From Candidatus Nomurabacteria bacterium (GTDB lineage: Bacteria > Patescibacteriota > Minisyncoccia > Phycocordibacterales > JACOZG01), in the NCBI GenBank assembly GCA_020847275.1, contig JADLCI010000007.1:188059-252058 (forward strand): a DNA stretch of 64,000 nucleotides, in the 5' to 3' direction. The notes under the pieces are model-generated. The model saw only the letters and a list, made by a program, of their open reading frames with translations, had not been told where the DNA came from and did not search any database. Positions 20,444 through 20,794 of this stretch are shown here, piece by piece (the stretch's first letter is position 1; each line of letters starts with the position of its first letter). Position numbers and translations under genes: made by a program.

Positions 20444-20684
20444 GGCCAAAACTCCAATCAGTATTGGTGGCGTGAGGGCTTAGGGCTGATCTTGTTTCTT
20501 GAAGTAAATCAGGCCAAAACTCCAATCAGTATTGGTGGTGTGGGGGCTCGCTTGCTGGCAATTTACCTGACCGGAGATAAGGCCAAAACTTCAATCAGTA
20601 TTGGTGGTGTGGGGGCTAGAATGCTGGTGATAAAACCTTTAACGATCAGGCCAAAACTCCAATCAGTATTGGTGGTGTGGGGGC
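20444..20684 (+). CRISPR. CRISPR array of 4 direct repeats (36 nt) and 3 spacers (32, 33, 32 nt), plus a decayed fifth repeat fragment at 20716-20733
   Basis: Consensus repeat ggccaaaactccaatcagtattggtggtgtgggggc. Repeats at 20444, 20512, 20581 and 20649; R1 has 2 mismatches and R3 has 1. The repeat has an internal ccaat/attgg hairpin. Spacers are ttagggctgatcttgtttcttgaagtaaatca, tcgcttgctggcaatttacctgaccggagataa and tagaatgctggtgataaaacctttaacgatca. Confidence 0.75.
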
Positions 20685-20794
20685 GTGAAAAGCACTTACG
20701 CTGACTGGGGTTTCTGGTCAAAAACTCCGAAGAGATGATTTCTGTAACAAAGACGAGAACAACAGTCCAGCGAATTCGCCGGGCTGTTTTTTTG

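Follow-up and report, generated by a model that had tools for sequence, protein, structure and literature searches.

A stretch of 64,000 nucleotides (nt) from a contig of Candidatus Nomurabacteria, a lineage of the candidate phyla radiation (CPR), carries a four-repeat CRISPR array at positions 20444-20733; the whole stretch is termed the window here. The array belongs to a type V locus of 3.4 kb inserted between khpA and trmD. On the + strand, a promoter is followed by a region of ∼330 nt that resembles a trans-activating CRISPR RNA (tracrRNA) and contains an anti-repeat, by the array and by a terminator; the opposite strand encodes a Cas1 remnant, an effector of 586 amino acids (aa) and an open reading frame (ORF) of 72 aa. 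The array had been described in an earlier note made from the sequence alone. Beyond that description, the effector looks catalytically dead, the Cas1 is a remnant, a gene resembling that of ribosomal protein S15 is attached to the operon, and spacer 2 targets the host gene rnr, which encodes RNase R. The locus may thus serve gene regulation rather than immunity. The reading proposed, which is given about an even chance of being right, is that this compact type V module no longer provides DNA-cutting immunity and is instead a non-cleaving, RNA-guided DNA binder that would form a roadblock on rnr. Within this reading, binding without cutting is held with more confidence and the effect on rnr with less.

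The array and its guide RNA region

The repeat has the consensus GGCCAAAACTCCAATCAGTATTGGTGGTGTGGGGGC. Its four copies begin at 20444, 20512, 20581 and 20649 (start-to-start distances of 68, 69 and 68 nt), which is where the earlier note had placed them, and the two mismatches in R1 and the single mismatch in R3 that it reported are also present. The window contains exactly these four copies when both strands are searched with up to three mismatches, such that the repeat is not dispersed elsewhere in the window, a check that had been called for; 100 dinucleotide-preserving shuffles of the window contain none. When a repeat of 36 nt is assumed, the inter-repeat stretches measure 32, 33 and 32 nt, with a further 31 nt before the terminal fragment, all as previously reported; with a repeat of 37 nt, the spacers are 31-32 nt. 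The longer repeat is preferred. The protospacer of spacer 2 has a C where a T follows R1-R3, and the T is therefore assigned to the repeat. The suggestion that the preceding A might extend the repeat further, to 38 nt, does not hold, because the 3′ ...ATAA of spacer 2 matches the protospacer and is true spacer sequence. The spacers show no significant similarity to one another.

The fragment ggtcaaaaactccgaaga, found 31 nt past R4, resembles nt 1-18 of the repeat apart from an additional A. It does represent a decayed unit at the cas-proximal end, as the Cas1 remnant ends at 20795, 62 nt away, and the Cas12-fold effector lies beside Cas1. A CCAAT-CAGT-ATTGG palindrome is found inside the repeat, but the repeat folded alone does no better than its shuffles (z about -1); the internal hairpin is not distinctive and was dropped as a structural signal.

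Homologous loci (L003/L004, L008 and L011) carry related repeats, which share the GGTGTGGG end, together with unrelated spacers. Spacers thus turn over between species, and this turnover, together with the adjacent cas genes, supports the interpretation as CRISPR. The four repeats of 36-37 nt, with unique spacers of similar length, fall within the usual definition of an array, i.e. at least three near-identical direct repeats of 23-55 nt. With regular repeats unique to the site, unique spacers of constant length, Cas1 and Cas12-fold neighbors, and homologous loci that have related repeats and different spacers, the segment 20444-20733 is confirmed as a genuine four-repeat CRISPR array. In the L011 array (12068-12106), the first element past the Cas1 remnant resembles an inverted repeat (GTCCTAGAAACCAATTCCTTAGTGGATGGAGGCCTGGGC) and a normally oriented repeat is next.

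Directly past khpA is a promoter-like element with the spacing TTGACA-N18-(TGc)TAGGCT. It was read from the sequence, a generic promoter scan having missed it, and L010 and L008 keep the arrangement TTGACA-N17/18-TGnTAnnnT at the corresponding position. The segment of 369 nt that separates khpA from R1 folds with z = -4.18 against shuffles on the + strand versus -0.41 on the - strand. This region is homologous to positions 12466-12850 (-) of L008 and to the tail of L003. An RNAalifold comparison of the window with L008, which comprises two sequences only, gives 50 base pairs, 18 of them changed on both sides. Rfam has no family for either the repeat or the tracrRNA-like region.

The anti-repeat core at 20311-20331 reads ACCACCAAT-CTA-TTTTGGCC, where ACCACCAAT is complementary to nt 23-31 of the repeat and TTTTGGCC to nt 1-8. 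Opposite R1, the pairing runs on for 10 nt into the leader as an inverted repeat. In the minimum free energy fold of 20108-20511, the anti-repeat pairs in cis with the leader and R1 (z = -3.55), and L008 shows a compensating pair, TTTAGGCC opposite the repeat's GGTCCTAAA. An RNAduplex search for the anti-repeat gave an energy within the null range, and the assignment therefore rests on direct complementarity and co-variation. The structured anti-repeat region that had been noticed near R1 is thus real by complementarity and folding, and by sequence and predicted fold a putative tracrRNA that pairs with the repeat is present.

Orientation had been considered ambiguous and is now assigned. The conserved promoter, the fold on the + strand and the terminator-like hairpin on the same strand are joined by a cas-proximal repeat that is degenerate in both the window and L003, and by the conservation in the window, L003 and L008 of GGTGTGGG, the spacer-proximal end of the repeat. 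Together these point to transcription of the array on the + strand, in the direction leading away from the cas genes, and to CRISPR RNAs (crRNAs) of the type V form 5′-repeat-spacer-3′.

The effector and its partner genes

The effector is identical to the NCBI hypothetical protein IT398_02470 of Candidatus Nomurabacteria bacterium, which is encoded on a contig of 296 kb and annotated there in a shorter form; the TTG start used here is supported by the conserved N-terminus of the related protein P0002. The effector sequence has no Pfam, NCBIfam or PDB sequence match. The Cas12f (CAS-V-F) model of PADLOC, PDLC01689, matches it at 2.5e-10, over aa 462-532 only (∼70 residues). A word-indexed search of proteins, whether queried with the effector alone or with a 28-sequence profile, returned just the self cluster and one homologue of 71% identity; HMMER, run exhaustively over 1.84 billion cluster representatives, gave 61 family members of about 560-680 aa. 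No related loci were found in GTDB genomes or JGI metagenomes. An alignment of 28 family members was used both as input for AlphaFold2 and for the comparison of catalytic columns. PDLC01689 matches 26 of these 28, at full length with 1e-45 to 6e-70 in a clade that carries a zinc finger and with scores of about 1e-8 to 1e-10 in the clade of the window. As judged by these hidden Markov models (HMMs), the family is a divergent branch of the Cas12f of PADLOC/CCTyper.

The AlphaFold2 model of the effector has a pLDDT (predicted local distance difference test) of 88.9 and a pTM (predicted template modelling score) of 0.83. Foldseek finds AsCas12f at E = 1.8e-8, and the structure comparison figures are 14.5 for AsCas12f, 13.0 for both Cas12e and ShCas12k, 12.1 for Cas12g, 11.4 for dCas12f and 11.3 for TnpB. 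Identity to the structural neighbors is about 10-15%, and to solved Cas12f structures 10-12%. The model can be assigned confidently to the Cas12/TnpB architecture (WED-REC plus a split RuvC), with AsCas12f, Cas12e and Cas12k as the nearest relatives.

The RuvC-I strand reads RPNVLGVHFG in the 28-member alignment, and none of the 28 members has an Asp at the catalytic position; the residue is His or non-acidic in all. The RuvC-II strand is NANLALEE(I). A profile of the RuvC region aligns GvHFG with GIDRG of LbCas12a, and LALEE with ALED (E = 0.002-0.008, many Cas12a chains). These columns of LbCas12a hold the catalytic D832 and E925; the window effector has Leu419 and Gly494 there, which the model places in strands 414-425 and 489-494. 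Glu495, which neighbors Gly494, is Gln in P0003, and P0002-P0004 do not conserve Asp557, which belongs to the RuvC-III column and lies in the terminal helix 556-574. The catalytic D-E-D triad of RuvC is thus not present in the window effector, a lack shared with natural exceptions, such as V-K, that are still classed as type V. About half of the family carries a CxxC...CxxC zinc-finger insert, which the window effector and 11 of 27 aligned relatives do not have. The alignment and the model make it very probable that the effector cannot cleave DNA through RuvC. With no acidic residue at RuvC-I or RuvC-II and with the zinc-finger domain lost, it should bind and not cut.

The zinc-finger clade (alignment A8 of RuvC domains, 16 members) has an invariant His, in the His19 column, at the place of the RuvC-I Asp of active Cas12/TnpB proteins; Glu is kept at RuvC-II and mostly Asp at RuvC-III. 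Proteins of this clade could be inactive, or their active site could be altered and serve, for example, RNA processing.

Relative to L001, the effector has a ratio of nonsynonymous to synonymous substitution (dN/dS) of 0.14, synonymous sites being saturated (proportion of synonymous differences, pS, 0.62). Given this ratio, and given that L001 and L002 have the locus at the same slot next to trmD, the effector is an old, maintained gene under purifying selection and not a pseudogene. As the RuvC-I Asp is missing from all 28 aligned members, its loss long predates spacer 2.

The Cas1 gene is decayed. Pfam Cas1 matches at 1.2e-16 but covers profile positions 73-194 of 283 only, and the NCBIfam and PADLOC matches are likewise partial. 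The orthologue in L001, of 257 aa, keeps GLLHSDNSVDPLVYDLMEIFR, which is deleted in the window copy; dN/dS between the remnant and L001 is 0.11. The N-terminal domain (∼75 residues) is missing family-wide: Cas1 in L001, L013 and L014 begins at profile position ∼76-84, and effector-linked copies span Pfam positions ∼76-262 only. The last ∼45 codons persist even at loci where the remainder has decayed. Neither cas2 nor cas4 is found between 10313 and 24144, such that the cas1-cas2-cas4 module of type V-F is absent here, and no cas2 partner is seen in the family loci. Without cas2 and cas4, and with a Cas1 of 187 aa that lacks the His/Asp stretch, the adaptation module of the window is, by its gene content, dead.

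The 72-aa ORF overlaps, at its stop, the start of the effector by 8 nt, an arrangement suggestive of translational coupling. Orthologues are found upstream of the effector in L001, L002, L003/L004, L012 and L013, which represent both clades, and L016 has a 105-aa ORF at the same place that also overlaps the effector start, position alone having been compared. A profile of five orthologues finds ∼40 different chains of uS15 in the PDB, with 7ooc_N as the top match (E = 2.9e-5, query 6-68 versus S15 22-81). The alignment spans helices 2-4 of S15, with the N-terminal helix missing. The Pfam Ribosomal_S15 model gives E = 0.006 for the window ORF (17.1 bits versus a cut-off of 31 bits) and 0.011 for the L013 orthologue. 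A few designed helical repeat proteins score about as well as S15, and the likeness therefore counts as suggestive and not as certain. In the Cas12k-sgRNA-target complex, the S15 of the host takes part as a structural subunit that sits wedged between REC2 and a tracrRNA duplex (PMC9798831). In the literature, no paper was found on an S15-like gene in a Cas12 operon.

The rnr match and competing explanations

Spacer 2 matches the complementary strand of the window at 32 of 32 positions, 3.2 kb from the array; the chance of an exact 32-mer in 128 kb is about 1e-14. The protospacer is directly past the conserved RNB motif ...RRYPDVMVHR in rnr, and its 5′ flank on the spacer-identical strand is ...ATGGTTCAC. 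In L010, the closest available relative, Rnr is 94% identical in amino acids and 84% in nucleotides, yet the target site, CGCCTGCTTGCAATCTATTTGACAGGTAATAA, differs at 8 of 32 positions (pS 0.60). The exact self-match is therefore not passive conservation, and comparison of the sequences indicates that it is either recent or actively maintained. Sister arrays were sought via the nearest Rnr orthologue (L010) and via P0002, P0003, P0009, P0010, P0018, P0023 and P0025. All of these contigs end at or before the array.

Phage and plasmid databases, with which the earlier note had recommended comparing the spacers, gave no match for spacers 1, 3 and 4: IMG/VR contains none of their 20-mers exactly, and BLASTN finds nothing in INPHARED phages or PLSDB plasmids. 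Elsewhere in the window, these three spacers match neither nucleotide nor protein sequence. Single scans with spacer 4 in JGI metagenomes and with a codon-degenerate spacer 3 in GTDB genomes were empty, and the three spacers of L003 and L008 have no exact match in IMG/VR. Two further candidate relationships were rejected. Spacers 2 and 3 share TGCTGG and the codons Arg-Leu/Met-Leu-Ala/Val-Ile, as if two RNB genes were targeted, but a local-alignment shuffle test gave p = 0.32 and the codon-degenerate search in GTDB was empty. Matches of spacer b of L003 to dnaK in the window (21/31 nt, in frame) or to rnr of L011 (22/31) score the same as the null of shuffled spacers.

It is proposed that the promoter past khpA would drive a + strand transcript in which a long structured tracrRNA-like RNA precedes the four-unit array. 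The anti-repeat would pair with the 5′ half of each repeat, possibly in cis for the first unit, in the manner of a natural single guide. The rnc gene, 7 kb away, is a candidate for the processing of tracrRNA and pre-crRNA; tracrRNA-dependent type II and type V systems use RNase III (PMC12669027). The Cas12-fold protein of 586 aa would take up the guide RNAs, with the co-translated S15-like protein as a probable companion, and the complex would bind DNA without cutting. As spacer 2 carries the sense sequence, a + strand crRNA would pair with the template strand of rnr, and the R-loop formed there would be a roadblock to elongation and would reduce the expression of RNase R. Within genes, repression by DNase-dead Cas12a is strongest when it is directed to the template strand (PMC5460296).

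Several points weigh against an rnr roadblock formed by a non-cleaving effector. A target is found for only one of the four spacers, and it is 1.5 kb inside the gene, away from the promoter. Four spacers of related loci (two of L003, one each of L008 and L011) have no match in their own short flanking DNA, and self-targeting is thus not shown as a family trait. Other members keep a longer Cas1 (257-263 aa) with the catalytic stretch, and contigs that break at arrays could point to arrays that vary between strains, in which case immunity would still be ongoing in the family. With respect to the effector, Glu495 and Asp557 are next to or at catalytic columns, though unconserved in the closest relatives, and rearranged RuvC sites are known in TnpB/Cas12 proteins (PMC10691335). 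The loss of activity is deduced from aligned sequences and from a structure prediction, and single sequences show a weak similarity to S15.

Several of these observations would also be expected if the system were defensive and acted by binding only, as Cas12m and Cas12c do, with spacer 2 acquired accidentally from DNA near the array and without a regulatory role. This explanation is considered the main rival and a serious possibility, though less probable than the reading proposed. The cell would tolerate an accidental self-spacer, given an effector that does not cut and the mild harm expected from a roadblock late in rnr. Interference by binding without cleavage is established for types V-M and V-C (PMC12669027), and PMC11013384 and a Cas12c preprint also concern binding-only interference. 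The fuller Cas1 of other family members, contig breaks that fit spacer heterogeneity, the differing spacers of related loci and the restriction of the self-match to one spacer in four all agree with a defensive role. Naive acquisition was reportedly found by Levy et al. in 2015 to be biased towards DNA near the CRISPR locus. On the other hand, arrays are tiny (1-4 spacers) and no spacer, here or at related loci, matches IMG/VR, INPHARED or PLSDB, phages of the CPR being poorly sampled. In addition, the window Cas1 is without its catalytic stretch, no Cas1 of the family has an N-terminal domain or a Cas2 partner, and the self-match is perfect despite fast synonymous drift at the site. Should the spacer be accidental, the locus would still represent a rare type V variant with a mini-Cas1 that has no N-terminal domain and with a family-wide loss of the RuvC-I aspartate.

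A decaying, functionless remnant, where self-targeting led to autoimmunity and then to inactivation by loss of RuvC residues and deletion within Cas1, followed by drift, is improbable. The truncated and internally deleted Cas1, the decayed terminal repeat, the mismatches in R1 and R3, and an effector without catalytic residues or zinc finger would all fit decay, and self-targeting spacers were reportedly found by Stern et al. in 2010 to be often tied to degenerate loci. But the effector ORF is intact with dN/dS of 0.14, and even the Cas1 remnant gives 0.11, both against a relative with saturated synonymous sites. The loss of the RuvC-I Asp in all 28 aligned members is older than spacer 2; promoter, tracrRNA structure and S15-like partner are kept across distant loci; and the same genomic slot is used in L001 and L002. 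Most improbable of all is a remnant or relative of Cas12k-like RNA-guided transposition or homing, with spacer 2 as a homing guide to the neighborhood of rnr. The RuvC-inactive effector of ∼600 aa, the long tracrRNA and the very short array with a chromosomal target are traits of Cas12k, the S15-like partner echoes the S15 of the Cas12k recruitment complex, and family members occupy three different slots in one housekeeping block. However, no tnsB, tnsC, tniQ or other transposase gene is present (direct checks of 2.5-24 and 34-43 kb, synteny for 24-34 kb), the PADLOC models match Cas12f and not Cas12k, and the locus is vertically stable beside trmD. V-K insertions are typically ∼60-70 bp from the target, and here the distance is 3.2 kb.

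If the roadblock on rnr is real, the locus would be an independent CPR example of CRISPR machinery reused for control of a host gene, in this case that of the chief exoribonuclease acting on structured RNA. A nuclease-dead compact Cas12 would then also be linked with the role of S15 in Cas12k complexes, with the S15-like protein encoded within the system. A broader hypothesis is that a CPR lineage has turned a RuvC-dead, Cas12f-like effector and an operon-encoded S15 paralogue into a chromosomal repressor with guides against housekeeping genes, and that spacer 2 and rnr have co-evolved. This is regarded as doubtful. If true, it would represent a natural CRISPR interference (CRISPRi) circuit that controls RNA decay in a minimal-genome symbiont, and the first CRISPR effector to encode an S15-type RNA chaperone as a dedicated subunit. 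In practical terms, a natural Cas12 of 586 aa predicted to bind DNA, with a defined guide scaffold, is a candidate compact chassis for CRISPRi or base editors. The case lends itself to a direct test, given a known guide, a known target and a defined strand on which pairing is expected.

Genomic setting and related systems

Table 1. Features of the locus and of its surroundings (positions in the window unless another locus is named)
Feature	Coordinates	Strand	Remarks
rnc (RNase III)	13063..13734	+	Pfam Ribonuclease_3 and dsrm; putative processing factor
rnr (RNase R), 640 aa, targeted host gene	16973..18895	-	Pfam RNB 8.6e-114, with CSD2, OB, S1; homologues named ribonuclease R
Protospacer of spacer 2	17352..17383	-	inside rnr codons ∼504-515 (HRLLAIYLTGDK), just past RNB motif IV
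Promoter-like element	20075..20104	+	-35 TTGACA at 20075-20080; extended -10 TGcTAGGCT ends at 20104
Structured non-coding region, putative long tracrRNA and leader	20105..20443	+	fold z-scores; homology to L008
Anti-repeat GACCACCAATCTATTTTGGCCCACAGGGAAT	20311..20341	+	complementarity, fold, co-variation with L008
Repeat R1	20444..20480	+	leader-proximal; 2 mismatches to consensus
Spacer 1	20481..20511	+	
Repeat R2	20512..20548	+	consensus
Spacer 2, CGCTTGCTGGCAATTTACCTGACCGGAGATAA	20549..20580	+	self-targeting; 32/32 to 17352-17383 (-)
Repeat R3	20581..20617	+	1 mismatch
Spacer 3	20618..20648	+	
Repeat R4	20649..20684	+	consensus; followed by G instead of T
Spacer 4	20685..20715	+	
Decayed terminal repeat fragment	20716..20733	+	cas-proximal; read from sequence; cas-proximal repeat degenerate in L003/L004 too
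Intrinsic-terminator-like hairpin with T7 run	20758..20795	+	closes array transcript (predicted)
Cas1 remnant, 187 aa	20795..21358	-	without N-terminal domain; catalytic His/Asp stretch deleted internally
Perfect 15-bp hairpin, A/T runs on both sides	21379..21415	.	putative bidirectional terminator between effector and Cas1
Cas12-fold effector, 586 aa, TTG start	21436..23196	-	AlphaFold2 model, Foldseek, partial PADLOC match
S15-like ORF, 72 aa	23189..23407	-	stop overlaps effector start by 8 nt
Linked Cas1, L001	11836-12609		
Linked Cas1, L013	11911-12693		
Linked Cas1, L014	11738-12529		
Linked Cas1, L003	∼3680-3840		
Linked Cas1, L008	12023-12295		
Linked Cas1, L011	∼11930-12040		

The locus shares with type V-F (Cas12f/Cas14) the size class of its effector, tracrRNA dependence and the PADLOC model matches. 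It differs in that the window match is limited to ∼70 residues, in the Leu and Gly at RuvC-I and RuvC-II, in the absence of the RuvC-I Asp from the family, and in a window effector that has neither an active RuvC nor the C-terminal zinc-finger (TNB) domain; cas2 and cas4 are absent, Cas1 is a remnant and an S15-like partner gene is present. Type V-K offers a different set of likenesses: Cas12k is also a RuvC-inactive Cas12 of ∼600 aa with a long tracrRNA, a minimal array whose guide matches the chromosome, and S15 as a subunit, which is the likely place of the S15-like protein in the ribonucleoprotein here (PMC9798831). Here, however, there is no linkage to Tn7-like genes within transposon ends, a Cas1 remnant is present, the host belongs to the CPR and not to the cyanobacteria, and the HMMs assign the effector to Cas12f, outside the Cas12k profile. 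S15 in type V-K is the host ribosomal protein, whereas here a dedicated, truncated paralogue would be encoded in the operon.

Cas12m and Cas12c systems keep a RuvC site for pre-crRNA processing, and type V-M is not known to use a tracrRNA. These systems (V-M and V-C, and the predicted V-O and V-P) resemble the locus in that guided binding is expected to block transcription without cutting (PMC12669027), but their targets are plasmids and phages, whereas the target here is a host housekeeping gene. Closest in the use of guides that match the host chromosome are the nuclease-dead descendants of TnpB and Cas12f, namely exapted dCas12f-sigmaE, CRISPR-associated dCas12f and TldR (PMC12259090, PMC10705468). 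One dCas12f cluster, described by Hoffmann et al., is still found beside CRISPR arrays, and its guides sometimes match efflux-pump promoters (PMC12259090). Those regulators are shorter, C-terminally truncated relatives of Cas12f from Bacteroidota and other phyla, with sigma-E, helix-turn-helix (HTH) or flagellin linkage and with promoter targets. The present locus belongs to a CPR lineage, has an S15-like partner, a four-spacer array and a Cas1 remnant, has no sigma or HTH gene in the operon, and has a target in a coding region. Inactivated rare type V variants have already been catalogued as V-O, V-P, V-U24, V-U43 and V-U44 (PMC12669027, PMC10691335). Novelty lies in an S15-like partner within the operon, in the CPR lineage, in the mini-Cas1 and in a spacer that matches rnr exactly.

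The module occupies the rpsP-khpA-(rimM)-trmD operon at the usual place of rimM, which is absent, and fills the gap between khpA and trmD (20071-23493). Upstream neighbors identified by Pfam are rnhB, a NusB-NUDIX fusion, rnc, smc, rnr, rpsP and khpA (19732-20070); downstream is trmD (23494-24144), followed, by synteny with L001, by rpoB, rpoC, dnaG and a gene for a sigma-70 factor. Housekeeping genes make up the flanks examined (pheS, gyrB, dnaE, rnhB, nusB, rnc, smc, rnr, rpsP, khpA, trmD, rpoB, rpoC, dnaG, alaS and rpoA). No transposase or other cas gene was found in gene-by-gene Pfam checks of 2.5-24 kb and 34-43 kb, the larger ORFs only being checked in 2.5-10 kb and 34-43 kb, with 24-34 kb covered by synteny with L001.

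Family members use three different slots in the nusB-rnc-smc-rnr-rpsP-khpA-trmD block. L001 and L002 have the locus in the same slot beside trmD as the window, in L003 the effector operon comes directly after rnr, and in L011 the effector is beside nusB, 8 kb from a khpA-trmD gap (1000-1410) that has just a 70-aa ORF. Of eleven related contigs, nine (L001, L002, L004, L010, L011, L012, L013, L014/L015 and L016) break off no more than a few hundred bases from the array or tracrRNA side. They come from independent assemblies, and the breaks may reflect strain-level heterogeneity of the arrays. In L008, the locus of P0007, a gene for a TraG/TrwB-type coupling protein (12839-14419) is directly past the tracrRNA-like region, and this copy may be on or beside a conjugative element.

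Other observations concern the neighborhood. The 301-aa ORF at 12158-13063 (+) represents an unusual fusion of NusB (1.7e-32) with a C-terminal NUDIX hydrolase (1.1e-12); for its L011 orthologue of 308 aa, the NusB match alone is on record. At 37151-40411 (+), three successive ORFs of 289, 393 and 418 aa without a Pfam match (E <= 1e-5) are found amid housekeeping genes.

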